In this document: positions 1 through 19,783 of the stretch, piece after piece
Position numbering within the stretch: the stretch's first letter is position 1
Layout: the number at the start of each line of letters is the position of its first letter
Origin: an uncultured Bacteroidota bacterium
GTDB lineage: Bacteria; Bacteroidota; Ignavibacteria; Kryptoniales; JAKASW01
Reading direction: 5' to 3'
Length of the DNA stretch: 64,000 bases
NCBI GenBank assembly: GCA_963806435.1
Contig: CAWEBD010000113.1
Span: 3,520-67,519, forward strand
Notes under the pieces: generated by a model
Databases searched by the model: none
The model's input: the letters and a program-made list of their open reading frames with translations, nothing else
Told to the model about the DNA's origin: nothing
Position numbers and translations under genes: made by a program

Positions 1-784
1 GGCTTATTCCTAACCGGTATGCGAGCCAGAAGGTGATTTGATCATCCATTGCGTAACATTGCCGAATGCTCCAGGTCTTTTACAGCTCTATTATGACGAA
101 TTTGCTCCAGAACCGACCTGCACTACCATAAGTTGCTTCCGCTGTGCACCCAACTTGACCTGCACACACATTTCCAACATAGCGGAGAAAACGAAGAATA
201 CCAGGCGCACATTTATCCCGAACTCATAAAATGGTCCAACCCAGTGAGAAATTCCCAAACTGATTAATCCAGTGGCTCTGTTTCTCCTTTGCTTCCTTTC
301 TATCCTCGTTGTCTCATGCCTTTCCTGTCCCCGAGTCCGTTCTTTTAATACCTAATTGCGCCAGATAGTGACTACTTCTTGGAATGGATTAAGACGTGAT
401 GGATGCGCGCCAGAAAAAACAAATCCCACTAAACATTTTACCCATCCTGAGTTAGTTGAGATAAAGATTTGTTTCGCTTACGGCCTGAAAAACAGACACC
501 TCCCAATTACTTTCCCTGGCCATGCTCATCAGAATCTCAGCTTTCTCTTTTCTCATCAGTGTTCACAAAATATCATCCCTCCTCCGCTTAGCCATCGCCC
601 AACCTTCCTCTCGGGCGCACTTCCGATGGTAAGCATCTTTTGCATTAGAGCGCATCTTTTGAACAACCACTTAAAGAGTTAACACCTACACCTGCTCCAT
701 TTCCACCTTGATTGCCAGGAATATAGTTACTCCTTTTTCATTTGTCAAGTACCATCGCCATGTTTCTTGGTCGTTCTTACGGTT

Positions 785-1070
785 CATCCCTCCAAATCCA
801 GCTGTCTGTCCAGCGTCCTGTACTGTATCGCTTCAGCTATATGTTCCGGCATTATATCATCATTGCCGGAAAGGTCTGCTATGGTCCTCGCGATTTTCAG
901 TATCCTGTCGTAAGCCCTCGCGCTCAAACCAAGTTTCGTTATCGCCTGCTTCAACAGGTCTTCTCCAGCTTTGTCTGCCTGACAGAATTCTCTTATCTCC
1001 TTGCTCTGTCCGTCCGCACATGCGTGCGGCCGGATCGCTCCGCGACATGTCGGCGTTCTTGAAGAGCTCC
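785..1070 (-). pseudogene. comM 3' fragment A (last ~85 codons, MELFKNADM...QLDLEG*), interrupted by a 37-nt hairpin-containing insert
   Basis: Nucleotide and protein similarity to the 3' end of the full comM at 17781-18040. The frame is broken by the insert at 1009-1045. It lies 25 nt downstream of the fragment B stop codon. Confidence 0.8.
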
Positions 1071-1099
1071 ATTTGCTGAGTGGATTTATGAGAGTTCCC

Positions 1100-1590
1100 T
1101 TATCCCTCCAGGTATAACTGCCTGTCGAGACTGCGGTATTGTATCGCTTCCGCTATATGCTCCGGCATTATGTCATCGCTGCCGGCAAGGTCGGCAATTG
1201 TTCTAGCAACTTTAAGTATCCTGTCGTACGCACGTGCGCTCAATCCGAGTTTGGTTATCGCCTGCTTCAGCAAATCTTCTCCGGATTTGTCCGCCTGGCA
1301 GAACTCCCTTATCTCCCTGCTCTGCATATCCGCATTCTTGAAGAGTCCTTTCCGGCCTTTGAACCTTTCCCTCTGAATCTCACGAGCTTTCTTCACTCTC
1401 GATCTCACAGCAGAAGATGGCTCTCCCGATTTCTTGCTCGAGAGCTCGGCATACTTCACTGCCGGCACTTCGACGTGTATGTCGATCCTGTCGAGCAGCG
1501 GCCCGCTTATCTTTGACATGTACCTCTGTATCTGCATCTGGTTGCAGCTACAGGTCGCATTCGGATTGCCGTAGTTTCCACAGGGACATG
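1100..1590 (-). pseudogene. displaced comM 3' fragment B (about 163 codons, PCPCGNYG... to LYLEG*)
   Basis: The 201-aa ORF 1100-1705 matches ComM residues from [15 protein letters not shown] to the stop. Similarity to the full gene ends abruptly after CCACAGGGACATGG near 1590. There is no AAA+ N-terminal part. Confidence 0.85.
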
Positions 1591-1610
1591 GCTGCGTTGC
1601 CATTCTGGAT

Positions 1611-2042
1611 GTGCGATTAAGAGCCAAAAAGCCGGTTTCCAAAGCGTACCCGAAGGGGCTCAGAACTATCGGCGACCACACTAGGAAACGACGGCTGGAC
1701 CTCAAGATGACCCAAAATCAAGTGGCAGAAGTCCTCGCAGTAGACGAAACCACCGTATGGAATTGGGAAAGTAACAGAACTGAGCCGCTCACCAAACACC
1801 TGCCGGCCCTTATTTCCTTCCTTGGGTATATTCCTTTTGAACCCACAGGAGCATCCCTAGACGAAAGGCTTCTTGAGTATCGTAGGCGATCCGGCCTCAG
1901 TCAGAAAAAGCTTGCAAGGGCGATAGGAATCGACCCGTCTACATTGAGCAGACTGGAGAAAAACAACCCAAGATGTTTCAACAAGGTTGTCAAAATGGCA
2001 GCCGATTTCCTCTGCAGGGCCAATCCGGGAGAAGATCAATAA
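1611..2042 (+). CDS. XRE-family transcriptional regulator with two tandem HTH domains (GTG start)
   Basis: 143 aa. The first HTH is LRTIGDHTRKRRLDLKMTQNQVAEVLAVDETTVWNWESNRTEP and the second is LLEYRRRSGLSQKKLARAIGIDPSTLSRLEKNN. A paralogous copy lies at 8086-8517. Confidence 0.8.
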   Translation: MRLRAKKPVSKAYPKGLRTIGDHTRKRRLDLKMTQNQVAEVLAVDETTVWNWESNRTEPLTKHLPALISFLGYIPFEPTGASLDERLLEYRRRSGLSQKKLARAIGIDPSTLSRLEKNNPRCFNKVVKMAADFLCRANPGEDQ

Positions 2043-2101
2043 TTCAACCGAGTGCGCCTCCCACGGCGCAGTAAAAGTGGTGAAACAAACCGTTAGATTA
2101 G

Positions 2102-2131
2102 ATTCCCGCCACGAAGCTTCGTGGCGGGAAT
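2102..2131. terminator. perfect 30-nt palindrome ATTCCCGCCACGAAG/CTTCGTGGCGGGAAT downstream of the XRE gene
   Basis: Inverted repeat read directly from the sequence. A homologous hairpin follows the second XRE copy (8579-8604). Confidence 0.5.
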
Positions 2132-2163
2132 CGTGATAATCTTACAATGACTACTTGAGTAGA

Positions 2164-2188
2164 AGTCCGCCAAAGAACGCGGCGGACT
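2164..2188. terminator. hairpin AGTCCGCC-N9-GGCGGACT between convergent genes
   Basis: Inverted repeat between the XRE 3' end and the 3' end of the minus-strand gene 2207-5750. Confidence 0.45.
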
Positions 2189-2206
2189 CTCGCTCAAATG
2201 ATTCCA

Positions 2207-5200
2207 TCACTTGAGCAAAAGCATCTTCTTAGTAATGACATGATTTCCGGCGAACAGTCGGTAGAAGTACACTCCGCTTGCCAGACTTGAACCATTGAAG
2301 TTAACACTGTACCTACCAACCTGCTGGTCCTGATCGACAAGAGTCCTCACCTCCTGTCCCAGCACATCGTAGATCTTGAGGGTTACATGTGATTCCTTGG
2401 GGATCGTGTAGTCGATCACTGTCGTCGGGTTGAACGGGTTCGGGTAGTTCTGGCTGAGGACGAAGTCCTTAATCACCGTTATCGGTTCCAGCGAAAGCGA
2501 CTGGAGATTGTCAGATGCCGAGCTATCAACCTGGCTGTAACTGTTGATGAGCGCAAATTTCGGATCCGTCAGGTTCGAGCTTACGTCGATCTTTACCTTC
2601 ACGGTCCTGTTCGCGATGCCGTCGGTGCTGAGAAGATAGCTAGTCGGCTTGTACCCACCGGCATTGGATGCTTTTATCCTGATATTCTTAATCGTTCCCA
2701 CCAGCTTACCGGTAGAGTTGTCTATTACTTCCACGTTGTAATTGATATAGCCGGTGTCTCCCAATACCGAGATGGCCGCTGTGGAATCGGCAAACCCGCT
2801 GTATTCACTGAATATAATCCTGGAATTTGTGTTTACCTGGAACGGCTCGGTAACGAGGGACTTGTTCAGGTTTGAAAGACTGTCGTAGTCTGTGCTGTCC
2901 GAACAAGGGGCGAAGCCGATGCTCTGGCCATCCACGCTGAGGTTACGAAACGAATAGTAGAAGTTGAGGCTGTCGTAGCTTATCGTACCGCCTCTGCCGT
3001 AAGTCATCTTGACTGGAACACTTGCCACGGTATTGGCATTCCCGGCCGGACTGTTTCCCGCTCCGCTGATGCTCCCGGACGTCTCCAGGGGATATGGAGA
3101 GCTGCTCGGATTAAACGCGGAAGCATACATCGAGCTTGTGCTCGCCCCGTTACTGAGCTGCATATCCCTGCCCGTCGTGCTGAGCGTTATCATGCTTGAT
3201 GCGTTGTAGTTGCAGGCATAGGCGGTCCAGGAGTTCGATGCACTTGCCTGACTGAAAGCTATGTAGGGCGTGCTTCCGCCGTTCGGCAGATTAACCGATA
3301 CGGAGCTCTCGTTGTAATCTATCGTGTTATAATTCGAAGCTCCCGGCGCGGTGGAGAAGAGAGTGATATTCAGAGGCGGTCTGCCGAAGTTGTTTGCTAT
3401 CCAGCATACCCATGCGGTGCTGTTGGGTTCCTGCACAAGGGAAGGCTGATAGTTCGCGGGCCAGGCGCTGTTGGAAATTGTTATTGGAGTCGACTGGCCA
3501 AGTGTGTCCATCGTCGGGGTGTTTAAGGCAAGCTCGGCAAATCTTATTGTCGATGAACTGCCGCTTCCCTCCTGCCAGGCCACGTCTGCATATTCACCTG
3601 ACTGTGTCTTCGCCCCGTAAATTGAAGGTTTTGTAGAACTCGCATCTGTGTCCCACATGGAATATGCGGCCCCGTTTGATTGAAGCAGGCCGTTGAAAGT
3701 GCCGAAGAGATAATTTATTCCTGCCGTCTGGCTGCCGGAAGTGCTTTTCTTCTCGAATGCGATAAGCCAGAAGCCATTATACATCGCGAAGTCGGGATTT
3801 GCGTTCACTGAATACGAGTCAGAGCCTTCAGTGTAGATCGGGCCATCGGCATCCTGGATGTATGTGCTGCCAGAAGGAACAAACACGGCGTAATCTATTT
3901 GATAAGTTGATCCATATGGTTCCTGAAACACGACAATGACATCGCTGGATGACGGATCATAATCGAGAGACGGGCACTTGCTCCCATGGTCGGTGCCGTT
4001 CACAGGATTATAGTCGAGCGGCTCACCGTTGTTTGCGAGCGTCCAGGACGATCCCTGATTTGACGAATATTCCACCCAAACGTGACCATCGTCCGTATAG
4101 GCCTCGAACAGGTAACCGCTGGGAGTTTGTATCATCTTCCGCTGGCCGTTGTCGGAATAAGCCGAAGCATCCATCGAGTGCTGAAGCTCCTTGAGATTAG
4201 CAGACAGGCTTACATTGTCTGTCGGGTAATAGGTAACCGGATTAGAGTCACTCCCGAAGTTCCAGCCGGCAAATGCCCAGCCGCTGTTTTGCGGGACAGA
4301 TTGGAGAGTGATCGATGTTCCGAGATCAACCGGGATCGAGTTGCTCTGGCTGCCATTTATAAGATAGTAGGCTCCGCTGCCGCCGGCATCGATGTAGGTC
4401 GGGCCGGTGAGCGTGACGGTGGGCTGCTGGTTATAGCTTGCACAGTAAATATCTTCATTGGACCCGGATCTGAAATCTGTCCAGAGCGCATGGGCCTCGC
4501 CGCTGCCGCTTGACGTGACTCCAATATAGTCAGAAGTGAGACTGCCAACCGTTGGATTACTACTGACGGATGTCAACTTTACATCTTCACCGGTACCGTC
4601 TTGACCGACAAACGACTGGCCATCGTAAGACTGGGCAGAGTAGACATCAACCTCATCGTTGGCATTTTCTTGATAGTACAAAAGCGAGATATGTCCCGTC
4701 GAATTGATACTCAACCATGGAAAGAACTGGTTACCAGTCGTCGTCTGCGTTGCTACTTGCGGAGTGCTCCAACTGGTGATCTCCCTGGCTCCAGTCGTGT
4801 GTGTGAAGTAGATGTCCATGGTTCCGTTGTCTTCTTCCGTCCAGGCGACGTAGACTTCGCTGTTTTGAGGATCGACCGCGATTGTGGGGAAGGATGAGAC
4901 GCGAAGTTTGCCGATCAGCTGCTGATAATAGCCTGTGAAAGTTCTGACGGACTCGTCGCTGAAGTTATTGCCACCATCCGTCGACATTGCGACATCAATG
5001 TATGAAGTTCCACCAGTCGCATTCGAATCGTATGCTACGTAGACCGCGCCATTGGGGCCTACTGCCGGCACAGCACCAGTGATTAATTCGCTGTTATTCC
5101 CACTGATTATTTTCGACACCCATCCCCCGGATAGGTTGCTCTGGTCGATTGGAAAAGCGAAATAGACATGACTTCCGGATTTATTTGACAGAAGGTCCGT

Positions 5201-5750
5201 CCACGAAACGTACAGTTCTCCCAGCAGTTGAATCACCGCTGTTGTCCACTGCCATATAGGGCTTGTCTTCGAAATCGTTGGGGTTAACCGGGAAGGGGAC
5301 ACTCCAACTGAGGCCGTTATTGTCCGTGTATTCGATGTCCACCACACCGACCGAATAACCAGTTCCAAAGTAGTTGGAAGTTGTAATGTCCTTGTTCACA
5401 AAAGTATAGTACTCACGACCAGACGCGTCTATGGCGCATGAAGGATCGAAGCCGCCTTCATAAGATCCATTACTCGGATTAAGGCCGGATTGCAATATGC
5501 CCTGGTTGATCCATGAACTGCCGCCGTCGGTGGAAAACGCATATCCCGGCTGAGAGAAGCTGCCGTTGCTGAAATCGTTCCATGTTGCCATTAGAGTATC
5601 TGGCTTATTTGGATCCAGCGCTATCGATGTCTCGCTCTGGTCGCCGGAGCCAACGTCAACCGGAACGTTATTGAAAGTCTGTGCGTACCCGGCTGTGGAA
5701 ATAACCATGAGAATGCACAGCGTCATAAGACGGTTCTTTAGATACCTCAT
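2207..5750 (-). CDS. very large BNR/sialidase-like beta-propeller surface protein with a T9SS C-terminal sorting domain; reading frame broken near 5220
   Basis: ORFs 5181-5849 and 2207-5368 join as ...DNSGDSTAG/ELYVSWTDL if one base of a 3-nt run at 5220-5222 is removed. Signal peptide MRYLKNRLMTLCILMVISTAGYAQ starts at 5750. BNR-like motifs are present (FSTDGGSSW, MSTDGGNNF, SSNQGSSW). The C-terminus is NYPNPFNPTTVIDY...GVYFYRL. Confidence 0.75.
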
Positions 5751-5997
5751 TTTTCGTCCTTTCTCTAACTCTGTTTCTTGCAGATAGTTGTTCATGCATT
5801 CCCCCGAACGCTTGAGGTCCCGTCCACACCCCCCCAACCTTCTTGGCATATTATGTCCTTGGTCTCACTCTCCTTTTTGTGGCCTGTCTTGCGGAAGTCT
5901 GTTTTTCTTAATGTCCGATTTCTTTCTCTTTATTCTGAGCGTGCGAAACGCAATGATCGAAGTCTTGTTCCTCGGACTCGTTTGCCTGATCGAAAAA

Positions 5998-7236
5998 TCA
6001 TTTGACTACCAGGGTCAGGCTTTCGAATGGCTCCCACTTGAATCCGATACCGGATGTGTTACCACTACTAGGACCGACGATCTCCCCATTTGCCTCACTG
6101 AAATCAAATTGAAGGCCCAGATGATCCAAGAGGAAGGATGCGATGGTATCGTCTCCACTTATCGCATCTGTAAATATCAGTCCTTTAATAAGTCCATCGA
6201 GTCTCACACTACCTCCGAATGTCGTGTACGTCGGGATCTCTGGACCAGTTGCTGAACCGGCACGGAAGTAGAGGAATTGGCCGATCTGGACCTGCCATCC
6301 TTTTCCGATGCTGACGCCGCCGGTTGGCCTGCCCGCAAAAAGGTTGTCGAAGACGTTGAAACTGCCGAGCCCTTCATCGTACACACTTGTGTTAGTGCCG
6401 TTGAAGACGAGGGGCGCGTTGACTTGCCTGATCCATGTAAACGACAGCCAATTCCATCGATGGCCTGCCACGGATGTCTCCAGTCCGAATTGAAAATTCC
6501 AGCCGAGATCGCCTTCCCTAGGAAGACCCGGTAAACCACCGGGCGCGTAGTTTCCGAAATTTCTCTCCGAATAACCAAATGTCAGGTTGAGGATGGGTGT
6601 GGCACCAATAATAGAGCGCGTGAAACTTCCATCCGAATTCAGAATAATGTCCGCAACCGGTATCTGAAGTAGTGCTCCCCAATCAGGTGTATAAGTGGAT
6701 TTGTAGTAACCCCGGAACCGACCCGTTTCTTCTGTCGTTGCCCACTTGAAAGTATAGCCAAGGCCCAATTTTACAAAGTAGTCCACCCCTAGCGCGACTG
6801 TTACCCCGTTCGCAGCATCTGTCGTAACACTGTTCGCGAGGAGGGATTCCGCACCCCCGGAATATGCGTAATCGTAATTAGGATTAGAGTACCCAACTCC
6901 CAATCCAATTCTTACGGGAAACGTGTTCCATAAACTATGTAGGTCCATTCCGGCATTGACTGCGAACGCACCCAGCTGATTCGGGATCGTCGGCATGTAG
7001 CTGGCACCCAACATTCCGTGCAAGCTGAACAGCCCAAGCTCTGCCGGATTAGCGATAACTGCGAGGGCATTGTCAGACACAAAGGAAACTCCAGCCCCTC
7101 CCATGCCATTTGTCTCGGCAGATACCTGTGAGTAAAGTGAAACCTGAGAAGGATAAAGGGCGTTTTGAGCCCATCCCCTTCCGAGCGTACAAAAGACCGT
7201 TGTTAAAATAACAGCAGTTGTTCCTCTCAATCTCAT
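5998..7236 (-). CDS. outer-membrane beta-barrel protein, PorV/PorQ/FadL-like (tentative)
   Basis: Signal peptide MRLRGTTAVILTTVFCTLGRGWAQ preceded by GGGAGG. The N-terminal motif NGMGGAGVSFVSDNALAVIANPAELG is typical of this barrel family. The sequence shows an alternating beta-strand pattern and a C-terminal aromatic residue. Confidence 0.5.
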   Translation of the reverse strand: MRLRGTTAVILTTVFCTLGRGWAQNALYPSQVSLYSQVSAETNGMGGAGVSFVSDNALAVIANPAELGLFSLHGMLGASYMPTIPNQLGAFAVNAGMDLHSLWNTFPVRIGLGVGYSNPNYDYAYSGGAESLLANSVTTDAANGVTVALGVDYFVKLGLGYTFKWATTEETGRFRGYYKSTYTPDWGALLQIPVADIILNSDGSFTRSIIGATPILNLTFGYSERNFGNYAPGGLPGLPREGDLGWNFQFGLETSVAGHRWNWLSFTWIRQVNAPLVFNGTNTSVYDEGLGSFNVFDNLFAGRPTGGVSIGKGWQVQIGQFLYFRAGSATGPEIPTYTTFGGSVRLDGLIKGLIFTDAISGDDTIASFLLDHLGLQFDFSEANGEIVGPSSGNTSGIGFKWEPFESLTLVVK

Positions 7237-7518
7237 CTCCGTATCCTCCCTTTCCATTGAACCGCAATTCTGCGGGACTGTTTACATGGGGCGGTCCAGA
7301 CATTGCTCAAACGTCTCTGGACCGGTCGCCTAGTTTGTTATCGGTAAGCTAAGGGATACGGTGATACTCTTCCGTGTATATATATTTTTCTTCCGAATTC
7401 TTTTTCATCTTTCGCTCTCCTCTTTTCTCCCTTGGAACTAACGCTCCGTTTGCGTCATCGCTCCACGGCTTCGTCTGCGCAAAACTGAAAGGGCTGAGAC
7501 GTTACCGATGATGCTTGG

Positions 7519-7548
7519 ATTATATGCCCCCCCCCCTCAGAAAGTCAA
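7519..7548 (-). promoter_or_regulatory. sigma70-like promoter TTGACT-18 nt-TATAAT with a G10 tract in the spacer
   Basis: The minus strand reads CCTTGACTTTCTGAGGGGGGGGGGCATATAATCC. It lies 30 nt downstream of the comM' C stop and about 280 nt upstream of the gene starting at 7236. Confidence 0.45.
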
Positions 7549-7577
7549 GGCACTCGAAAGTTTCATTGTACTGTCTA

Positions 7578-8065
7578 TCATTCCAGATACAGCTGCCTGT
7601 CCAGCGTCCTGTACTGTATCGCCTCCGCTATATGTTCCGGCATTATGTCAGAACTTGCAGCGAGGTCCGCGATCGTCCTCGCAACTTTGAGAATCCTATC
7701 GTACGCCCTCGCGCTCAGTCCTAATTTCGTTATCGCCTGCTTCAGCAAGTCCTCTCCTCCCGCGTCGGGCTGACAGAACTCTCGTATCTCTTTACTTTGC
7801 ATATCTGCATTCTTAAAAAGTCCTTTTCTTCCTTTGAATCTTTCTCTCTGAATCTCTCTTGCCTTCTTCACTCTTGTTCTAACGGCTGAAGATGGCTCAC
7901 CAGATTTCTTGCTCGAAAGCTCGGCATACTTCACCGCCGGCACTTCAACATGTATATCTATCCTGTCGAGCAGCGGCCCGCTTATCTTCGACATGTACCT
8001 CTGTATCTGCATCTGGTTGCAGCTGCATGTCGCATTCGGGTTGCCGTAATTTCCACAGGGACACC
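7578..8065 (-). pseudogene. displaced comM 3' fragment C (about 163 codons)
   Basis: The 174-aa ORF 7578-8102 matches ComM from [16 protein letters not shown] to LYLE*. The junction position and flanking XRE sequence match those of fragment B. Confidence 0.85.
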
Positions 8066-8085
8066 CCTGCGTTGCCATTCTGGAT

Positions 8086-8517
8086 GTGCGATTAAGCGCC
8101 AAAAAGCCAGTTCCCAGGGCTTACCCGAAGGAGATCAGGACCATCGGTGACCATGTGAGGAGAAGACGCCTAGATCTGAAGATGACCCAAAAACAAGTGG
8201 CGGAAATCATCTCGGTGGACGAAAGCACCGTGTGGAATTGGGAAAGTAACAGAACTGAACCACTCATCAGGCATTTGCCGATTATATTTCTTTTCCTGGG
8301 GTACAGCCCCTTTAGTACGACCGGACAGTCCTTAGGGGAAAGGCTTCAGGACTACCGAAGGAAAACTGGCTTCAGCCGGAAAAAGGTCGCAAATGCGATT
8401 GGCACCGACCCAGGAACTTTGGGGAAGATTGAGAAAAACGACTCAGGATGCTCCCATAAGGTCATTAGAAAGGCAATCAATTTCCTGTCCAGAGCCGATT
8501 CGAGAAAAGATCAGTAG
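8086..8517 (+). CDS. XRE-family regulator with two tandem HTH domains (paralog of 1611-2042)
   Basis: 143 aa and collinear with the first copy. The start lies about 20 nt from the comM' junction. Confidence 0.8.
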   Translation: MRLSAKKPVPRAYPKEIRTIGDHVRRRRLDLKMTQKQVAEIISVDESTVWNWESNRTEPLIRHLPIIFLFLGYSPFSTTGQSLGERLQDYRRKTGFSRKKVANAIGTDPGTLGKIEKNDSGCSHKVIRKAINFLSRADSRKDQ

Positions 8518-8578
8518 TTCAACCGAATACCTCTCACCCGGTGGAGTAACAGTGGCGAAACTGGCCATTCGGTTAGCT

Positions 8579-8604
8579 TCCCGCCATGGAATCTCGTGGC
8601 GGGA
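8579..8604. terminator. hairpin TCCCGCCA-N10-TGGCGGGA downstream of XRE copy 2
   Basis: Inverted repeat homologous to the one at 2102-2131. Confidence 0.45.
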
Positions 8605-8630
8605 GACGGCCTGACGGCCCCAAGGATATC

Positions 8631-9299
8631 TTACTTCAGCATCATCATCTTCATCACCTTACTCCAGTTACCCGCCGCGATACGGTAGAAATACACTCCA
8701 GATGCAACCTGCTCTCCATCCCTGTTCAAGCCGTTCCATGTCACCTCGTTGTACCCGGCATTGTAGCTCCTATCCGCGATCTGCGCCACTTCCCTTCCGA
8801 GAACATCGTAAATCGTCAGCATCACATGCGATGTCTTCGGAAGCTCGAACGCTATCTTCGTCGATGGGTTAAACGGATTCGGGAAGTTGTTGTAAAGCTT
8901 ATAGTCCTTCGGGGCTCCCACCGATACTGTAATGTCTTTGGTCCAGAGCTGGCCATCACTTGAACTTATCACCGCAGAGAGTGTTGTGTCCTTTCCGACA
9001 GGAGCTTTATTATCAACGGAGAATGTGAATTCAGCGTCTCCCGTGCTTTTTGCCTGGATACTTTTCAGCAGTACCGTGTTCGACTTGAACTCAAGCCATG
9101 ACGGGAGGTTCGTGAAGATCACCGAGACATTCTTTGCATCGATGGACGAATTGTTCTCCACGCTCAGCGATACGGTATTTCCCTCAGATCCGAACGCGAT
9201 TTGCCACCTCTGGCCCGATGCATTGTCGGCTGTCTGGGCAACCACGCTTCCTGCCAGAAATGCGCTGAGTATCAATACTACCCTCATTTTCCCAAGCAT
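8631..9299 (-). CDS. small secreted protein with a T9SS C-terminal sorting domain
   Basis: Signal peptide MLGKMRVVLILSAFLAGSVVAQ, with GGAGG upstream. The C-terminus is NNFPNPFNPSTKIAF...GVYFYRI. Confidence 0.75.
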   Translation of the reverse strand: MLGKMRVVLILSAFLAGSVVAQTADNASGQRWQIAFGSEGNTVSLSVENNSSIDAKNVSVIFTNLPSWLEFKSNTVLLKSIQAKSTGDAEFTFSVDNKAPVGKDTTLSAVISSSDGQLWTKDITVSVGAPKDYKLYNNFPNPFNPSTKIAFELPKTSHVMLTIYDVLGREVAQIADRSYNAGYNEVTWNGLNRDGEQVASGVYFYRIAAGNWSKVMKMMMLK

Positions 9300-9682
9300 C
9301 TTTCTTTTACCTCCATATCTTCTTTATTCCTGCGCCAACATGTCACCCCTAAAGGGGTTCCACAGATTGGGGGAGGATTCCTTTCTACAAACATGTCGCG
9401 CCTACGGCGCTTCCATGTTCTCATACATGTGTTATTCCTCTGCAACTCACATGGCGTGCCTGCGGCACTTTATGCTTTCCCGTTATCTCATCTTCACAAC
9501 TTCCCATGTTTTCTCATCACACATCCTGCATCGTGAATCACGTTTCCACCACTAACGAGGTCTACGGATTGGATGGATTTCTACATCTAAAAATGGGTCG
9601 TGCCGACGGCGATTCCTGCTTCTGAATTTCTTACCTTCACAATTTCCCATGTTCTCTCATCACGTATCCTGCATCGTGAATC

Positions 9683-11185
9683 TTACCTCTTGTCCCTACG
9701 ACCTCCCCCATGTCCTTCGTTACTCCTCTCCGGCAGCCTGACTACCAGATATTCAGCATTGAACTTCAGCGACAGGTATCCCTGGCTCGTTATCATCGGT
9801 TCCTCCCCGCGCTTCACAAGCTTAGCGCTCAGGTTGTTCAGAAGCTCAACCTCCAGAACGAATATCTCCAGGTTCCTCCGCGCCACAACAGAGTCTCCGT
9901 GGTCAAGTGCTCGCTTGGCCATGTCCAGTCTTCTATCCAGTACTTCCACTATTCCATTATTCCAATCGTGGTCAAAGTTCCAATTCCTGTCTGGTCCCCA
10001 TTTCCCATAATTCCTGAATTCTCCTTCCTTGTACCAGTCATTCCCTCTCATCATCTCGTCGATGTCATGGCCACGGTCTCTATCGTCTCTAAGCCAGCCT
10101 TTTGCTACTGCCTGGTGCTTCAATGAGATGAGGGTGTCAAGCAAAGCATTTGTAGGTGTGACTACCGTATCACTGATTGCCACGGCCTGGTTGGTGGAGT
10201 CGTTGTAATAATAAAACATTTGCGGATAATTGGTGAATGTTAGGATCTTGCCACCCGAAGGAAGAGACAAACGCTGGGTAAGTTTGCCTGTCGACGCATC
10301 AAAAACATAAACAGTGCCGGGATATTCGTCGTACCCTTCGTGAGCCGCAGAATCGGTTATGATGGGAATCCGCCTGTTGAGAATAACGTGTTTCCCATCG
10401 GCAGATAAGTAACCATCCGCAATCCATGGAAATGCAAAAGGAGTATATACGAGCCCTTGATCTACATTGCAGACAACATATTTCTGGTTTTTATATCCTG
10501 CTGGTCTTTCATATTCAACCAGATCAAGACCGTTCTTAGCATCACTTATACCTGGCTCAAAAGCAAAACTCCCCAAGGACGTAACTTTCTTGTCTGGGAG
10601 TCTCTTATTTGCAATGATGTCCCAAGCACGAAAGACCAACCCGTTGGAATCTGAAATGGAAATGTAAGCTTTAGATTGATCTTGAGAGATACATATCGGT
10701 TCGTACGAATATAATTCTGTCAATGTGTCTATTGGTTGAAGCGTCGTATTATCGAATACAATGGTTTTCTGATAATAATCGGATGAACCTATGGACACAT
10801 AAAATCGGTTTGTCATTGGCGTGAATATTACTTGATAAACCCATGCATCTCTTTCAAAGAGGACGGTCCTCTTATTGGCATTATTCAGGTCTACCATAAC
10901 AACCTGGCTGCGATTTTGCAGAATTAACCTGCTCTGATCCGGCGAATCGAACATTTGTGTGATTCTGCCTGCATCCTTAAGAATCAACTCGGAAATTCCA
11001 TTTGTCAAATTTTGCCTGTATATGTCAACGCTATAACCGCCGCCAGTATAATTGGGGTCGTCAAGGTAGTAAAAGCGATACGGCTGCGAACGAGCGGTCC
11101 CTGCAACAAGAAGAACAATCGCCACCGCCGCCCAGTAAATCTTGCGGGAGTGAGATATGTCTCTATCCACAGGCAAAGTCTTCAT
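9683..11185 (-). CDS. secreted beta-propeller-like protein with a conserved ~165-aa helical C-terminal domain (paralog 2)
   Basis: N-terminal hydrophobic signal or anchor. The C-terminal third is nearly identical to that of the upstream paralog. The ATG at 11185 is preceded by AGAGGTGAG. Confidence 0.65.
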   Translation of the reverse strand: MKTLPVDRDISHSRKIYWAAVAIVLLVAGTARSQPYRFYYLDDPNYTGGGYSVDIYRQNLTNGISELILKDAGRITQMFDSPDQSRLILQNRSQVVMVDLNNANKRTVLFERDAWVYQVIFTPMTNRFYVSIGSSDYYQKTIVFDNTTLQPIDTLTELYSYEPICISQDQSKAYISISDSNGLVFRAWDIIANKRLPDKKVTSLGSFAFEPGISDAKNGLDLVEYERPAGYKNQKYVVCNVDQGLVYTPFAFPWIADGYLSADGKHVILNRRIPIITDSAAHEGYDEYPGTVYVFDASTGKLTQRLSLPSGGKILTFTNYPQMFYYYNDSTNQAVAISDTVVTPTNALLDTLISLKHQAVAKGWLRDDRDRGHDIDEMMRGNDWYKEGEFRNYGKWGPDRNWNFDHDWNNGIVEVLDRRLDMAKRALDHGDSVVARRNLEIFVLEVELLNNLSAKLVKRGEEPMITSQGYLSLKFNAEYLVVRLPERSNEGHGGGRRDKR

Positions 11186-11190
11186 ATATC

Positions 11191-12645
11191 TCACCTCTTG
11201 TCCCTGCGACCTCTTCCACTTCCTTCACTATGCCTCTCCGGCAACCTGTCTATCACATATTCGGCATTGAACTTCAACGACAGATATCCCTGGCTCGTTA
11301 TTACCGGCTCCTCTCCGCGCTTCAAAAGCTTAGTGCTCAGGTTGTTCAGAAGCTCCACCTCCATCACGAATATCTCCAGGTTCCTTCGGGCCGTAACTGA
11401 GTCCCCACGATCAAGCGCTCGCTTTGCCATGTCCAGTCTTCTATCGAGCACTTCCACTATTCCCTCATTCCAATCGTGATCGAACTTCCAGTCTTTCCCA
11501 ACTTCCCAGCTTCTGAACTTCTTAAATTCTCCTTCCTTATACCACTCGTTCCCTCTCATCATCTCGTCGATGTCGTGGCCGCGGTCCCTATTGTCTCTAA
11601 GCCAGCCTTTTGCCACGGCCTGGTGCTTTAAGGATATGAGCGTATCGATCAGAGCATTCGGCGGTGTGACTACAGTATCACTGATGGCAATCGCCTGGTT
11701 TGTAGAGTCGTTGTAGTAGTAGAGCATCCTGGGATAGTTGTCAAAGGTGAATATTTCCCCATTAGGAGGTAGAGTTAAGCGCTGCATGAATTCGCCCGTC
11801 GAAGCATCAAATACATAAACAATACCGGTATAGTACTCCCCACCAGCAAGAGCTGTATCATAATTTACTTGTTCAAGAATTGCGTACTTACCGTCCGAGG
11901 ACAAGTATCCTTTAGAACGCCACGGAAAAGCGATTGGACTAAAGGTAGTGTTTTTATCGACATCGCAAAGGACATATTCCACGCCGCTGAAGTCGTTCCT
12001 GGCATTATCTTCATAACTCACTAGAGCCAGACCGTCCTTGGCGTCGTTTAATATAACGAATGACTCGACGGGCACCATGGTACCACAACGCCGGGGCAAT
12101 TCACTTTCTTTACTACTGATGATATACCTTGAGAACAATATCCCTGTGGAATCCGGTTGAAAACGGTAGATGGTTTTATTGTCCTTGGAACAAAAAGGGT
12201 TATACTGAAAGCTTTCACCGATTGTATCGAGCGGTTGCATTGTCGAGCGATCAATGATAACTGTTTTTGTGCTATCCTGCTCGTCATCAAACGTAATGAA
12301 ATACCGGTTAGTTTGAGGTGAATCTTTTATCCCGTCAATTTCATTGACGCCGCTCAACAGTTCTCTCTCATGACGGGATGGATCGCTCACATCCATAGCA
12401 ACAAGTGAAAATCTAACCTGGAAGAATATCTCAGATTGGTTGGTGTTAGAAAATATTCTGCCATTAACCCGTCCTACATTCTTCGCAAATAGCGCATTGC
12501 TATTCGTGGATAAGTTGAGTCTATAAATATCTCCGCTATAGCCAGGCACATCGTAATCCGGATTATAGGCAAAGTAATAATAATAGGGCTGCGAATAAGC
12601 TATCGAACTAACGGCAAAAGCTAGTAACGCTATTCTTGTTATCAT
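11191..12645 (-). CDS. secreted beta-propeller-like protein with a conserved helical C-terminal domain (paralog 1)
   Basis: Signal peptide MITRIALLAFAVSSIAYSQ with GAGGAG upstream. It shares the C-terminus ...NYPRMLYYYNDSTNQAIAISDTVVTP...LDRRLDMAKRALD... with 9683-11185. Confidence 0.65.
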   Translation of the reverse strand: MITRIALLAFAVSSIAYSQPYYYYFAYNPDYDVPGYSGDIYRLNLSTNSNALFAKNVGRVNGRIFSNTNQSEIFFQVRFSLVAMDVSDPSRHERELLSGVNEIDGIKDSPQTNRYFITFDDEQDSTKTVIIDRSTMQPLDTIGESFQYNPFCSKDNKTIYRFQPDSTGILFSRYIISSKESELPRRCGTMVPVESFVILNDAKDGLALVSYEDNARNDFSGVEYVLCDVDKNTTFSPIAFPWRSKGYLSSDGKYAILEQVNYDTALAGGEYYTGIVYVFDASTGEFMQRLTLPPNGEIFTFDNYPRMLYYYNDSTNQAIAISDTVVTPPNALIDTLISLKHQAVAKGWLRDNRDRGHDIDEMMRGNEWYKEGEFKKFRSWEVGKDWKFDHDWNEGIVEVLDRRLDMAKRALDRGDSVTARRNLEIFVMEVELLNNLSTKLLKRGEEPVITSQGYLSLKFNAEYVIDRLPERHSEGSGRGRRDKR

Positions 12646-12668
12646 ATATAACTCCTCGCAAATTTTGA

Positions 12669-14833
12669 TTACCAATCGCTTGGTGGCCGGTTGCTCATCA
12701 CCTCATTATATATATTTATCGCAGGTCCACCGTAATCTCTTCCATAGCCACCTTTAGCTTTAGGCTTCCCCAGGTTGGGATCTTTTTGCCAACTCCCCCC
12801 ACCCCTGTTGGGATCGGCAGGCACCCAAATCCAATAATGATATCCATTATATAGTTGAAAGGCGTCCGTCAGGAATTCCTGTCTAGTAAAGTTTGTCGCA
12901 TAACGGTATGCACCACCTTTTCTTCTCACTTTCGAGGGATACTTTGTCGCGAGGTTTTCCTTCTTTGCGAAGCGAGACTGGCCTTCCTTTGCGTTCGCTT
13001 TCCAATCCCAGACCTCCTCATTGTTGTCCGGCGGGTCCAGCTGCATCAGACCATATCCATGCGGAGCACCGAATATAGGGAAACTCTTGTCGTCCCGGAA
13101 TTGCCTGAATCTGCTTTCCATATACGCAATAACCTGTTCTTCAACAGTGAGTAACGCCTTGACTGCCGTCCTGTCAGGATTGTCTCCCTTAATTACAAAT
13201 CCATGATTCACGGTTTTATCATAAACTTTTCCACTTGCTGTAGCTGTCACATCAAGCGTGATTTCATCTCCGCCCCGTATCATCTTGTCCCAATCAATTG
13301 GCCATGAACTTACATTTGAGTATTCCGCGGTCGTATTCCCATGAAAAGAATCGTCAAACTTCCTGCCGTCGGGACCTTCCCACTGCACTCGCAGATTCCA
13401 TTCGAAATTCACTGTGCCACCATTGTAATTCTCGAGTCGGGCTTGAGGTGTAATGTCCGGCATCTTCGGATCTTTGGTAATGTCTTTCTCGTCTTTAAGT
13501 TCATCGGTCGGGTACACCACTACCAATGTGGGAGAGCCCCCTTTCACAACCAATGTCCCTTTTCCGGTGAGAGTCGGCTTGTCGACGGCGTCGACGGTGA
13601 AGTTGATCGTCGCGTTCGTATCTGTCGGCGTGCCGTCGGCAGTGTAGTATACCAGTCCGGCGTTTGCATACCAAAACGGGACCTCCGTGCTATCCTCGGT
13701 TGCCGAAGTCAGCTTAACGGACTGCATGTTCCCTGCGACTTCCGGAGTGCCGGTCTCGAGCGCCGTGCCCGACACCTTATGAGCGTTCCTCCCCGGATGC
13801 TTTGCCTTCATGGCTGCGCTCGGAAGAAAATAGTAAAGATGACCGTACTGCGACGGCGATGTGTATATCTTCACATAACCGTCGTAATAGATGCTCTGGT
13901 TGTACGCATCCTCCGCATCTGCATATATCGTAGACGATGCCGAGTCTTCTATCGTGTCGGGCAACGGGTGAACGGCAAAGTGATCGAGTCCGGCAAAGAC
14001 CTCTGCCGAGTCAGTCTCGGTCATGCCGTTGCTTTCCGCTTCTACCGTCACCCAATCACCTGTAGAATCCGGAACGGCGCCGTGCGCGACAAGCGAGTAC
14101 TCGCCGATTTCATCCCCGAGCGTCGTTATGCTTGAACCCAAGTCCGTCACCATCCCTGTCTGAGGATCCTTTTTGTGGAACGATACAAACCTGCTTCCCG
14201 AAATGACCGTCAACGTGACCGGGTCGGTGTGCGGTGACCAGACCGTGTTGCTCGTATCGTAGACCGATGCGAGCGCCATCCCTGTCGAGTCGCCGGACAT
14301 GAACTCGTTCGTCCCGACCGAAAAAGAGAATTTCGACACATATGGGGTGGTGAATGTTGCTCCGTCTTCGAAATACCAGGCATAATGCCAATCGCCGACA
14401 TGTGCTGTCCCTGAACTGCTGTCGACCAGGGAATCGTCAAGGTATATATAGTAGCTGTAAGGGGCCTGTGAGGAATAGTTCCAATAAAGGGCAGGCAATA
14501 TTTGATATTGATTGGGTTTCAGTCCGTGTATTACGATCGTGATCGAACCTGACCCGGAGTAGACGTGGTATCGAATTCATAATTGCCGTCGTAGAGGTAT
14601 ACATTATGGATTTCCAGCTTGCCCGAATCCTGCGTGGTCCAATTGAACCGGACACGGAGCGTATGCGTGTTAACTGTAGCAATGCTTAACCGCTTCTGTT
14701 GCAGAGGGGATATGGAAACCGTCTCTTGAATGTGAACCTGCGCCATCGCGTGCATGAAAGTGACACAGACCATGAAACCCGAAGCTATCTACCAGGTAAC
14801 ACCCATCTGTCGAAGTTTTCTCCCGATACCCAT
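12669..14833 (-). pseudogene. secreted ~720-aa protein with a C-terminal lytic-transglycosylase (SLT/lysozyme-like) motif; in-frame TAG at codon 15 plus one frameshift
   Basis: The ATG at 14833 has AAGGAG 5 nt upstream. The predicted signal peptide is MGIGRKLRQMGVTW*IASGFMVCVTFMHAMA, with the TAG at 14789-14791. The frame changes between 14577 and 14531. The C-terminal motif is YMESRFRQF...GAPHGYGLMQLD. Confidence 0.6.
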
Positions 14834-15139
14834 ACTTCTCCTTCTCTTCCCTTGCTCCGCCAGCACTTATCTGTGTTTCCGCGGCGTTTTCCCTCCGCCG
14901 CACCCGGCATCTTTTTTCGAAGTTAATTCGCCACTCTTGGGAATCCAAATGATTTTTCTGAGGTGAGACCTGCGTCACACGCGCGTTGGTTCTTTTCGGC
15001 AGTTGGGAACTTCACATCGTATAAACCTACTGCTTCGTATGAGGCTGCTATACTTGTCGGCAGGCCCTAAGCCTCTTAAAGAGCAAATCGATTCCGAGTT
15101 TTCTTCGTCGCTTACCTCAAGACCGGCTCAAACGGCTCT

Positions 15140-15243
15140 ACCCCTCCAGGTACAGCTGCCTGTCCAGCGTCCTGTACTGTATAGCCTCGGCAATATGTTC
15201 CGGCATGATATCGCCGCTGCCGGGAAGGTCCGCTAGCGTTCCG
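15140..15243 (-). pseudogene. comM 3' fragment E (last ~33 codons)
   Basis: About 100 nt are similar to the extreme 3' end of comM (…[22 protein letters not shown]). Similarity is lost abruptly near 15243. Confidence 0.7.
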
Positions 15244-15448
15244 CCCAGGCTGAATTTCCGGTCCAATCGGCCCCACCAATGACTCTTTGCTTTGTCTGCG
15301 TGAGTCTAAAAAAGTTGGATTCGAGGGCGCCCGTGTTACTATTCTCAAGATGATCGCCGACGCGAAGAACAAGCCGCTGAAGACGATAATCAAGAGGAAA
15401 ATTCAGGGGGGCTGCTAGAGGCGCAGTCGGGAACTCAAAGGGAAGAAT

Positions 15449-15545
15449 CACACAGAGTGACACGGAGAAAAGACAGAGTTCCACAGAGAAGAAGGCTATT
15501 CTCGGTGTCTCTCTCTTTATTTCCTCCGTGGAACTCTGTGAAATA
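15449..15545. repeat. REP/MITE-like inverted-repeat element (CAGAGTTCCACAGAG ... CTCCGTGGAACTCTG)
   Basis: Inverted repeats at 15474-15488 and 15524-15538. The architecture is the same as the elements at 28933-29136 and 49930-50075. Confidence 0.5.
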
Positions 15546-15594
15546 TTGTTCAAGCTAGTTCCCAGGCACGTCTCTAAAAACGGATGATACCAGA

Positions 15595-15620
15595 AGAGTC
15601 CCGTCAAAAGACGGGACTCT
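15595..15620 (-). terminator. hairpin AGAGTCCCGTC-loop-GACGGGACTCT after the gene 15647-17020
   Basis: Inverted repeat about 27 nt downstream of the stop codon. There is no long U tract. Confidence 0.4.
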
Positions 15621-15646
15621 CTGTTAAACGGATATATACCGAGCTC

Positions 15647-17020
15647 TTATTTGATGAGCATTAATTTCTTCGTCTCAACGAAGTCTCCCGACTGCATCCT
15701 ATAGAAGTATACTCCGCTGGGAAGATTATGCCCGTTGAACACGACGGTTTTATCGCCGATGGCCTCATCTCGGTCGACGAGCGTGGCTACCTTCCTTCCA
15801 AGTATGTCATATACTGTTATCGTCACATGTGTAACAGGCGACCACGGTGAGGATACTTCGTACGGGATTGTAGTGGTCGCGTTGAACGGGTTCGGATAAT
15901 TTTGTCCAAGTTCAAGTGCAAAGAACGGAAATGCTACGTTCCACGCCTCATTCGAGACATGGCTCTCTACCCCATCGCTATCCACAGCACTTATCCAATA
16001 AGCGTATGCAAAACCGTTCTGAACTGTGCTATCAATGTATGCGGTCGTGCCGGCCGCCACCGAATCGATAACTGAGGCTCTGGCCAGATCACCGTACCCC
16101 CGGTCATACGGACCATCCCGATAAATTCGATACCTCTCCACGTTCGAACTCGAACTTGGCAGCCAGCCGAGCTTGATTTTCCGCGGAATATCTTCGCCAT
16201 TGTCGCAGTGTATCAGCTCGGGTATCCCCGGCGTCTCTCCAATGTCGATTTCATAGATCCTCGGTCCGCCGACCCCTGCCATATCGACAGCCCACAAGTA
16301 ACCTTTAGCTATCGCGAGTCCAGTTAACGGCCCCCTGAACGGAAGATCACTCCTCGGTAAATCCAACTCATAAAGAATATGACTGGCGGTGTCTATCTTG
16401 AATATGTATCCGTTATTGTCATCGCAATACCAGAGATTTCCCCGATGATAAACCAGACCGTTGATATTTCCCGTCGGCGGAGGAAAGGAATCTATCACGG
16501 CTCCATTATTGGGACTGGCTTTGTAAATCATACTCTTCTGTCCAGCAGGAGAAGCAAAACATACATTTGTACCATAGTACAAGTTTCTCCCGTCCCACGC
16601 TATCCCTGCCCAATAACAAGAGCCAACCGCTGGAACATAATTCAGGACCTGTCCGTCAGTAGACATACGAACTATACTGCAATCGTTATGGGTCGGATAA
16701 AGACTTCTGACCCAGAGGTTAGTTCCATCCCAAGCAATTCCGTCAGGACTTTCAGTCGGCGATGGAATTGAGTCAGTTACCTTGTGTGTCAATATGTCCA
16801 CCCTATAGACTCGCTGAGGCCCATAATCCAATGCTCGATTTGGAATCCAGAATGAGGTACCATCTGAACAGATACCGTCAGGCAGTGGAATCGGAATGAG
16901 GAAATTATCAACGACATTACCGATGCGAGAGGTTTGCGCCTCGGCTACCGTTGTAGTGATAAAACCGGAGACATTAAGGATCAACAATAGCCAATAAACG
17001 GATAGCTTTGCCAAATATTC
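15647..17020 (-). CDS. secreted beta-propeller (NHL/YncE-like) plus FN3-like protein with a T9SS C-terminal sorting domain
   Basis: Signal or anchor sequence MEYLAKLSVYWLLLILNVSGFITTTVAEAQ. The C-terminus is NYPNPFNATTTIPY...GVYFYRM. Confidence 0.75.
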   Translation of the reverse strand, partial: EYLAKLSVYWLLLILNVSGFITTTVAEAQTSRIGNVVDNFLIPIPLPDGICSDGTSFWIPNRALDYGPQRVYRVDILTHKVTDSIPSPTESPDGIAWDGTNLWVRSLYPTHNDCSIVRMSTDGQVLNYVPAVGSCYWAGIAWDGRNLYYGTNVCFASPAGQKSMIYKASPNNGAVIDSFPPPTGNINGLVYHRGNLWYCDDNNGYIFKIDTASHILYELDLPRSDLPFRGPLTGLAIAKGYLWAVDMAGVGGPRIYEIDIGETPGIPELIHCDNGEDIPRKIKLGWLPSSSSNVERYRIYRDGPYDRGYGDLARASVIDSVAAGTTAYIDSTVQNGFAYAYWISAVDSDGVESHVSNEAWNVAFPFFALELGQNYPNPFNATTTIPYEVSSPWSPVTHVTITVYDILGRKVATLVDRDEAIGDKTVVFNGHNLPSGVYFYRMQSGDFVETKKLMLIK

Positions 17021-17406
17021 CATTCTTAATGTGCGCTCGTAATACAAGACCGAATCGCCCGTTTGCAGCCTCACTTCACCTATCTCTCCTCGTCCTTCTA
17101 AAATCTCATTCTGTTCAAACTGAATTGGAGCAAAGAACAGCAGACCGGTCCACGGTCAGTGTCCACACTCTCGCTTTGATTTTGGGAACCCATTCCCCTT
17201 TGAGCACGACGTTCTCGCACTATTCCAGCCCTTCAATTTGTCCTGATCGATCTAACGACTGCTTCCAAGCCCCCTTTACTAGACGCAGCTCAAGTCTTGA
17301 TAACTAGACAGTCCCACGCAGAGGTCACTTCTTGTCCTACTAAAGAATCGTTCCCTTGAATTTGCATACCCGGTCCGCCAATCACCGGCCCTGAAACACC
17401 GCAGGC

Positions 17407-17436
17407 AAAATATCCCCCCCCCCATCATAAAGTCAA
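17407..17436 (-). promoter_or_regulatory. sigma70-like promoter TTGACT-18 nt-TATTTT with a G10 tract in the spacer
   Basis: The minus strand reads CTTGACTTTATGATGGGGGGGGGGATATTTTGCC. It is homologous to 7519-7548 and lies about 30 nt downstream of the comM' D stop. Confidence 0.4.
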
Positions 17437-17464
17437 GTCGTTGAAAGAAACTTCTTGGATGGTT

Positions 17465-17751
17465 TCATCCCTCCAGATATAATTGCCTATCCAGCGTCCT
17501 GTATTGTATCGCCTCCGCAATATGTTCCGGCATTATGTCTCTGTTACCGGAAAGATCAGCGATCGTTCTCGCGACTTTCAGTATCCTGTCGTACGCTCTC
17601 GCACTTAATCCGAGTTTTGTTATCGCCTGTTTCAACAAGTCTTCTCCAGATTTGTCCGCCTGACAGAACTCCCGTATCTCCTTGCTCTGTCCGTCCGCAC
17701 ATTTGTGCGGCCGGATCGCTGCGCGACATGTCCGCATTCCTGAATTGGTCC
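17465..17751 (-). pseudogene. comM 3' fragment D (last ~85 codons) with the same 37-nt insert as fragment A
   Basis: The 90-aa ORF ends ...[74 protein letters not shown]. The insert is at 17690-17726. The fragment lies 44 nt downstream of the intact comM stop. Confidence 0.8.
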
Positions 17752-17780
17752 ATTTGCCAAGTGATTCTGTGAAAGTCCCC

Positions 17781-19340: not shown

Positions 19341-19783
19341 TTGTTTCCGACTATTACAGGCACGCCGGACGCTATCCGCCGCTGTCTGCGCTATATCTTA
19401 ATGAATGGGTTGGAAAAAGCAAAGGCTGTCGGCATCCGATGAATCGGACAGCTCTATCGGCAGAAAACCCTCCGGGTTTCGTGCTTCGTCAGCCGTTGAT
19501 TTGAATCGACGCCACTTCTAATTATGAATCGAAAAATGGATCCGAACGAGACCATGGGAAAGCTCAAAAGAAAAGAACAATGTCATTTCGAATACCGCTT
19601 TGCGGGATGAGAAATCTTCCATGGGAGACTACCAGTCCAAGTGTACGGGTCTCTCGCACAGGATTCCTCCGCTCGTCCGTCCGCCGTTCGCGCACAGACT
19701 CACCCGGTCGGAATGACTTTGGTGGTCTCGCGACAGACTCGAGTATAGACAGCCTCCCTAATGAACTGATCAGAGAGCGGATT

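Follow-up and report, generated by a model that had tools for sequence, protein, structure and literature searches.

In host-adapted pathogens such as Neisseria, Haemophilus and Treponema, homopolymers in promoter spacers are a textbook means of switching genes. To our knowledge, free-living, uncultured environmental phyla offer hardly any documented cases. In the porA promoter of N. meningitidis, a poly-G tract lies between the −35 and −10 elements (van der Ende et al. 1995, as presented in PMC5084427 and PMC7864442). The T. pallidum gene tp0126 also has poly-G between its −35 and −10 boxes, with an optimum at 17-nt spacing. In the same species the tprL tract ranges from G7 to G11 within isolates, and promoter poly-G of 7 to 11, which varies within isolates, alters reporter output (PMC7864442).

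Here we describe two promoters with a G10 spacer tract in an uncultured soil member of the Kryptoniota. The window, by which we mean the whole 64-kb stretch of DNA that was analysed, encodes an intact ComM protein that is 95% identical to that of a Candidatus Kryptoniota MAG; its closest ComM relatives come from Kryptoniota MAGs or from MAGs labelled 'Bacteroidetes bacterium'. Both promoters lie on the minus strand. Promoter C (7548–7519) reads TTGACT-TTCTGA-G10-CA-TATAAT, with the −35 hexamer at 7543–7548, the G10 tract at 7527–7536 and the −10 hexamer at 7519–7524. Promoter D (17436–17407) reads TTGACT-TTATGAT-G10-A-TATTTT, with the same elements at 17431–17436, 17414–17423 and 17407–17412. 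The spacer is 18 nt in each. Site A (720–748, minus strand), 3' of comM' fragment A, is promoter-like (TTGACA-17-TATATT) and has no G tract. All three sites had been picked out in a sequence-only reading of the window, and on re-reading they proved to be exactly as described there. A consensus scan of positions 1–20000 ranked C and A as the top two promoter-like sites, each matching at 11 of 12 positions. The −35 hexamer of promoter C begins 29 nt past the TGA stop (7580–7578) of comM' fragment C, and at C as well as at D a comM-derived reading frame ends about 30 nt upstream. As homologous copies of a single module, TTGACTTT.TGA.G10.ATA, the two promoters represent one origin, not two independent events.

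The two tracts stand out from the surrounding DNA. In a homopolymer census of the 64-kb window, G/C runs reach a maximum length of 7 with the exception of the two G10 runs, and the observed count of G9 words was reached in 4 of 100 dinucleotide-preserving shuffles. No further G/C run of 8 or more was found in approximately 224 kb of sequence fetched without a promoter or leader pattern (the window plus L001–L010, L020, L021, L023 and L034). All other runs of this length are in loci fetched by promoter or leader pattern, and there again they lie within promoter spacers. At both C and D a homopolymer long enough for a contingency promoter (at least about 8) is thus placed between the two hexamers.

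We propose that the G10 promoters are slipped-strand contingency switches, of the kind that sets volume, and give this reading a probability of roughly 0.55. Slippage becomes frequent in runs much shorter than G10, and we know of no bacterium studied in which a pure G10 run is not prone to slip. The runs would slip in replication, producing cells with G9, G10 and G11 in one population. Each change of the tract would move the −35/−10 spacing to 17, 18 or 19 nt, resulting in heritable and reversible differences in promoter strength, and expression would be expected to track tract length. Promoter C would drive a leader with an upstream ORF, a PorV-like barrel gene and the gene for a BNR-like T9SS protein; promoter D would drive the gene for a T9SS-secreted, propeller-like protein. 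The proposal builds on four things demonstrated below or above: the architecture, the promoter type of the lineage, the T9SS cargo, and the polymorphism of tract and spacer among homologous loci.

That the promoters face T9SS cargo, as the sequence-only reading had it, is borne out by type A sorting domains encoded behind both C and D. The first gene after promoter C (5998–7236, minus strand) encodes a PorV-like outer-membrane beta-barrel, so named from NCBIfam and AlphaFold. A Pfam search of the product gave no match, and the NCBIfam family PorV_fam matches its N-terminal part weakly (E 1e-4). The AlphaFold model (14 homologues) is a beta-barrel of modest confidence (pLDDT 64, pTM 0.67). Its best PDB matches are the PorV chains 8gl6_F and 6h3i_F of T9SS translocon structures (TM 0.45–0.52), followed by FadL-family barrels. 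On the strength of this model 'PorV-like' seems a reasonable description, short of proven membership of the family. The second gene after promoter C (2207–5849, minus strand) encodes a BNR-like T9SS substrate, identified by Por_Secre_tail/TIGR04183. One extra base near 5214 splits it into ORFs of 222 and 1053 aa; in L166, an otherwise identical contig, the gene is intact (1108 aa). The extra base is not at a homopolymer and could reflect either faulty assembly or a genuine pseudogene variant. After promoter D comes the gene for a propeller-like protein with a C-terminal T9SS type A sorting domain (15647–17020, minus strand), for which an exact-protein look-up at the chosen start codon returned no record. 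Family searches of the large ORFs at 8.6–14.5 kb gave either no match or T9SS tails only. Also on the minus strand, 9683–11194 and 11191–12675 are neighbouring paralogues that encode 503 and 494 aa; their 3' ends are 85% identical, and a 609-aa gene lies upstream of the pair; all three proteins have signal-peptide-like starts and gave no Pfam or NCBIfam match.

Relatives have the same promoter, with a leader of approximately 285 nt and a PorV-like gene, at about 15 loci, most of which are not near comM. The order of the module there is promoter, ∼285-nt leader, barrel protein of ∼410 aa and large T9SS substrate. Upstream DNA is unrelated between loci; similarity sets in sharply near the −35 box and extends across the −10 box and on into the leader. 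In three related MAGs, a promoter-pattern scan found the same promoter on contigs without comM. The link to comM 3' ends made by the sequence-only reading therefore stands in part: sites C and D do adjoin comM' ends, but relatives have this combination of promoter, leader and operon elsewhere in the genome.

How these loci were collected matters for what follows. Tract-unbiased loci were searched by the conserved leader block and by homologues of the first gene, and every clade match from these searches has TTGACT and a −10 box. TTGACT stands at all related loci recovered, and with three exceptions these came from fetch patterns that left it unspecified; the loci so fetched are the protein-fetched L167–L169 and the leader-anchored ones. 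The −10 box is TATAAT in most, and TACTTT or TATATT in three.

The hexamers are conserved, but tract length varies between G6 and G11 and spacer length between 15 and 20 nt, with a modal spacer of 18 nt, and every length change falls in or beside the G run. The window and L166 have TTCTGA-G10-CA (18 nt), L112 has TTCTGAA-G10-CA (19 nt), L115 and L121 have TTCTGAA-G9-CA (18 nt), L114 has TTCTGA-G8-CA (16 nt) and L118 has TTGTGA-G7-CA (15 nt). The spacer is TTCAGAGAC-G7-CA in L136 and TTCAGAGAC-G6-ACA in L153 (18 nt each), TTCTGA-G6TGGACA in L138 (18 nt) and TCATAAAT-G7-CA in L150 (17 nt). L167, L205 and two copies in L186 share TTGTAAT-G7-CA (16 nt); L168 carries TTATGGA-G10-CA and L169 TTTTGA-G11-CA (19 nt each). 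Contigs linked to comM' show G11 in run X5 (two contigs) and G10 in runs X1 and X4. Homologues of the D-type gene vary in the same manner: L106 has TTGTGAA-G9-CA (18 nt) and L081 has TTGTGA-G7AG4-CA (20 nt). Contigs from X22, at about 93% identity, and from X24, at full identity, have G10 in the D-type promoter, and a more distant homologue of the D gene, L172, has a promoter-like site without the tract. One genome, SKS5.bin54, contains at least five such promoters, with differing tract lengths. A tract fixed across relatives would have spoken against a switch, and the tract is not fixed; within one population, too, its length would be expected to vary under the switch model.

Copies of the module also occur close together. 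In L186 (MAS4.bin38), identical copies of the G7 promoter and leader lie at 2662–2685 and 4645–4668, 1983 nt apart, and a third is located on a different contig, L205. The sequences point to a recent duplication of the module within one genome.

When metagenomes were scanned for C-type promoters irrespective of the spacer, L121 was the sole related contig. In two promoter-pattern genome scans, which included unrelated phyla, match counts were about those expected by chance for 18 specified bases and carry no conclusion by themselves, and a match in an unrelated phylum is meaningful only where a long tract is followed directly by a −10 box. A Thermodesulfobacteriota MAG, OZ220467.1, encodes a set of at least 13 paralogous lipoproteins that contain collagen-like GXY repeats, and each of the genes follows a poly-G promoter, TTGACTTT[GA]TGA-G12-14-TAAACT or TAAAAT (L082, L086–L088, L090, L094, L096, L098, L102, L108, L113, L117 and L120). 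The exact G12–14 lengths are uncertain, since the assembly may be long-read. From its sequence this set looks like a large poly-G-promoter family of surface proteins in a distant phylum.

Could the G-rich spacer instead be a fixed part of a real promoter? It might be bound by a protein, or it might be stiff, under-twisted DNA that is best at 18 nt, with lengths drifting slowly between genomes. This is possible, if doubtful, and several observations speak for it. The modal spacing, 18 nt instead of the canonical 17, occurs in at least seven loci and is built from differing mixes of G and other bases. In L138 (G6TGGA) and L153 (G6A), G's are replaced by substitution and the spacer still measures 18 nt. 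The sequence-only reading had asked whether relatives vary only in tract length, and in this respect they do not; substitutions of this type show selection on spacing or on G-richness rather than slippage. A G-rich spacer may work best at 18 nt because of the low twist of G tracts. Moreover, near-identical copies always agree in tract length when low-depth Logan consensus contigs are compared: the window and L166 (both G10), L114 and the contigs of runs X7, X9 and X10 (all G8), L115 and L121 (both G9), and four L167-type copies (all G7). Each island also carries an XRE-family regulator that might bind such a site.

Against a fixed spacer, the hexamers are perfectly conserved even where 15, 16, 19 or 20 nt separate them, a range that a spacing-dependent element should not tolerate. 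The spacer conserves no binding motif other than the run itself. In addition, the proneness of pure G10 to slip is intrinsic, a matter of general knowledge for which T. pallidum provides an example (PMC7864442). Judged from sequence, intact hexamers set 15, 19 or 20 nt apart look like the off-states of contingency promoters and would be unexpected for an ordinary promoter under purifying selection. We therefore favour slipped-strand switching over a fixed spacer.

The switch presupposes that the hexamers are functional, and the promoter type of the lineage bears on this directly. The sequence-only reading had recognized that the hexamers would be irrelevant if the housekeeping sigma factor used a Bacteroidota-type TAnnTTTG consensus. 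In 192 kb of the Kryptoniota clade (the window plus L001–L010), 29 kb of which is intergenic and 162 kb coding, TTGAC[AT]-N16-18-TAnnnT has 11 matches between genes and three within them, a density 20-fold higher between genes. By contrast, the Bacteroidota −7 element TAnnTTTG has an intergenic/coding density ratio of 1.15 and the bipartite motif TTTG-N17-21-TAnnTTTG has no match in the same 192 kb. With the one unenriched and the other absent, a Bacteroidota-type consensus is not what this clade displays, and the hexamers keep their relevance. Promoter-like sites of the clade that have no G tract, including those directly after comM in L001 and L010, have spacers of 17 nt (16 nt in one). Both G10 promoters are thus one base longer than the local norm, and the loss of one G would bring them to it, as the sequence-only reading had anticipated for a 17-nt optimum.

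The hexamers at C and D thus belong to the promoter type of the clade, and from their sequence we infer that they are the working promoter of the downstream genes. A search for the locus in transcriptome runs gave no match. A different reading is that transcription arises from comM read-through or from a promoter of an unrecognised type, the G run then being part of the transcript or of an island-end element. Such a reading could draw on the unusually long leaders (about 285 and 385 nt) and on the position of both sites only about 30 nt past a comM-derived frame. It is improbable, because the module in relatives is not behind comM and its conservation begins at the −35 box, because the match to the consensus is 11/12 and the motif class is strongly intergenic in the lineage, and because the recombination breakpoint of the island is about 520 nt away from the promoter site.

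Hardly credible is an origin of the G10 runs in sequencing or assembly, for example as poly-G from two-colour Illumina chemistry: three low-depth Logan contigs do stop at or beside the D tract (X2 at 17399, X21 at 17415 and X24 at 17427), but the tract sits between conserved flanks in L166, X1, X4, X5 and X22 and in MAGs from several projects, and we rejected an artefact since independent assemblies and studies share the flanked tract. The Logan contig L166, an independent assembly, is identical to the window through the promoter C tract, and contigs of other metagenomes also carry the tract. The contig breaks at the D tract are compatible with heterogeneity, and equally with poor coverage.

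Between promoter C and the PorV-like gene lies a conserved leader of approximately 285 nt (7237–7518, minus strand, delimited by alignments), which is highly conserved in at least 11 loci. An Rfam search of the first 1–20 kb of the window, the leader included, gave no match. The first hairpin of the leader (alignment columns 13–52) has compensatory changes and is the only hairpin that does; beyond it, variation is too low to judge structure. Folding of the alignment gave a weak covariation term, and we therefore claim no RNA structure beyond the first hairpin.

The leader contains an upstream ORF of 19 codons (7349–7408, minus strand), recognized by comparison of leaders: MKKNSEEKYIYTEEYHRIP, with stop TAG and the Shine-Dalgarno sequence AGAGGAGAG. 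Homologous ORFs are present in L114, L167, L168, L169, L150, L121 and L136, and third-position changes keep the peptide. The consensus is M.K.SEEK..YTE[ER]YHRIP followed by a stop, mostly at 19 codons and with a strong Shine-Dalgarno sequence. Of the 14 loci examined, 6 keep a frame of 19 residues with HRIP-TAG at its end (the window, its duplicate L166, L114, L167, L168 and L169), again with third-position changes. A Pro-stop end of this kind resembles that of regulatory arrest peptides such as TnaC. From promoter D to its gene the leader is approximately 385 nt. A terminator-like hairpin within it (GACCG..CGGTC plus a T-rich tail, 17143–17157, minus strand) could, by its sequence, be an attenuator. 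The long leader and the upstream ORF show that further layers of control exist.

Elements of large serine recombinases are known inside genes, as A118 in comK of Listeria and SPbeta in spsM of Bacillus. The setting of promoters C and D at comM appears to be of a related kind. Intact comM (17781–19340, minus strand; assigned from its domain and comparison with homologues) has a breakpoint core at 18256–18269, and the window contains six copies of the comM 3' end. One of them, comM' fragment C (7578–8063, minus strand), is a displaced 3' end that begins exactly at the island breakpoint, and fragments B and C begin at one and the same nucleotide. A 14-mer spanning the breakpoint, TGTCCCTGTGGAAA, has three copies, at 18256–18269 in intact comM, at 8050–8063 and at 1575–1588. 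Immediately upstream of both B and C, on the opposite strand, is a 143-aa XRE-family HTH gene. One of these genes (8086–8517, plus strand) forms the far end of a 10.2-kb island and abuts fragment C; the other (1611–2042, plus strand) forms the far end of a 6.5-kb island and abuts fragment B.

Related contigs repeat this arrangement. In L001, a 5.8-kb island is closed by the same HTH/comM' junction. In L023, the break in comM falls on exactly this breakpoint nucleotide, and right there lies a gene (7032–8564) for a 510-aa large serine recombinase with Resolvase, Recombinase and zinc-ribbon domains. In L021 (7074–7250), the HTH end is joined to comM in inverted orientation. Inside the islands of the window, no recombinase or integrase gene was found.

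The simplest reading of these sequences is that the window holds two stacked islands, from about 18266 to 8061 (10.2 kb) and from 8060 to 1586 (6.5 kb). Circular elements would integrate at AACCCATGT|CCCTGTGG within comM. Each would supply its own comM 3' end, leaving comM intact, and behind it a promoter, the cargo genes and the HTH gene; with each integration the older comM 3' end would be displaced downstream. The promoters would be the first functional element behind each island's copy of comM, which explains why they lie just downstream of comM 3' ends.

Smaller features of the islands deserve mention. A sixth comM 3' remnant of 95 nt (15139–15233), 93% identical to the intact end, lies within the 10.2-kb island and suggests that this island may itself be composite. 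The short comM' fragments D and A are interrupted, at 17683–17719 and 1002–1038 (minus strand), by 37 inserted nucleotides that include an imperfect hairpin (TCCGGCCGCAC....GTGCGGACGGA), and the same insertion is present in one comM' fragment of L006 (7610–7650). The pair of full comM and D and the pair of B and A have an identical spacing of 316 nt.

One may go further and see the poly-G promoter, the 19-codon HRIP-stop ORF and the leader as a portable, three-layer cassette for operons of a PorV-like shuttle and its T9SS cargo, spread on recombinase-less islands that a large serine recombinase stacks in comM. This extension is speculative and, taken as a whole, rather unlikely. If it holds, an uncultured soil phylum would have an array of independently switchable surface modules.

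If the tracts switch, soil and sediment populations of Kryptoniota would consist of cells displaying different T9SS surface modules, possibly as a defence against phages or grazers or as bet-hedging on substrates. A single consensus MAG would then misreport which genes are on, and poly-G promoters would be an easy metagenome marker for surface contingency genes. A literature search for phase variation in Kryptoniota found nothing, an absence that is no proof. What is new here is the lineage, the environmental setting and the tie to T9SS modules on stacked islands; the mechanism is unsurprising.

Indeed, it is plausible that the mechanism is of the same class as that of porA and tp0126 and not new in kind. 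The Kryptoniota promoters have in common with this class the length and position of the tract, polymorphism between related loci, and surface or secreted cargo. The islands can be compared with A118 and SPbeta. Like these, they have an exact breakpoint within a conserved gene, comM, and in L023 a large serine recombinase gene lies at that breakpoint. Unlike them, the islands of the window bring a replacement comM 3' end, stack in tandem and have no recombinase gene of their own.

As far as porA is described in the sources cited at the outset, the G tract there also makes up most of a sigma-70-type spacer ahead of an outer-membrane protein gene, and its length sets the spacing around a 17-nt optimum. 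Whereas switching and graded expression of porA are proven within clones by that account, the variation described here is known from polymorphism between genomes, the host is an uncultured environmental member of the Kryptoniota and the modal spacing is 18 nt. The likeness to Treponema tp0126 and tprE/G/J/L lies in poly-G within or next to the promoters of putative outer-membrane protein genes, in the presence of several such promoters per genome and in overlapping tract lengths (PMC7864442). Heterogeneity within isolates and effects on reporters were measured in Treponema (PMC7864442), whereas the Kryptoniota case is known from sequence comparison. Unlike its Treponema counterparts, the Kryptoniota promoter is followed by a conserved leader with an upstream ORF.
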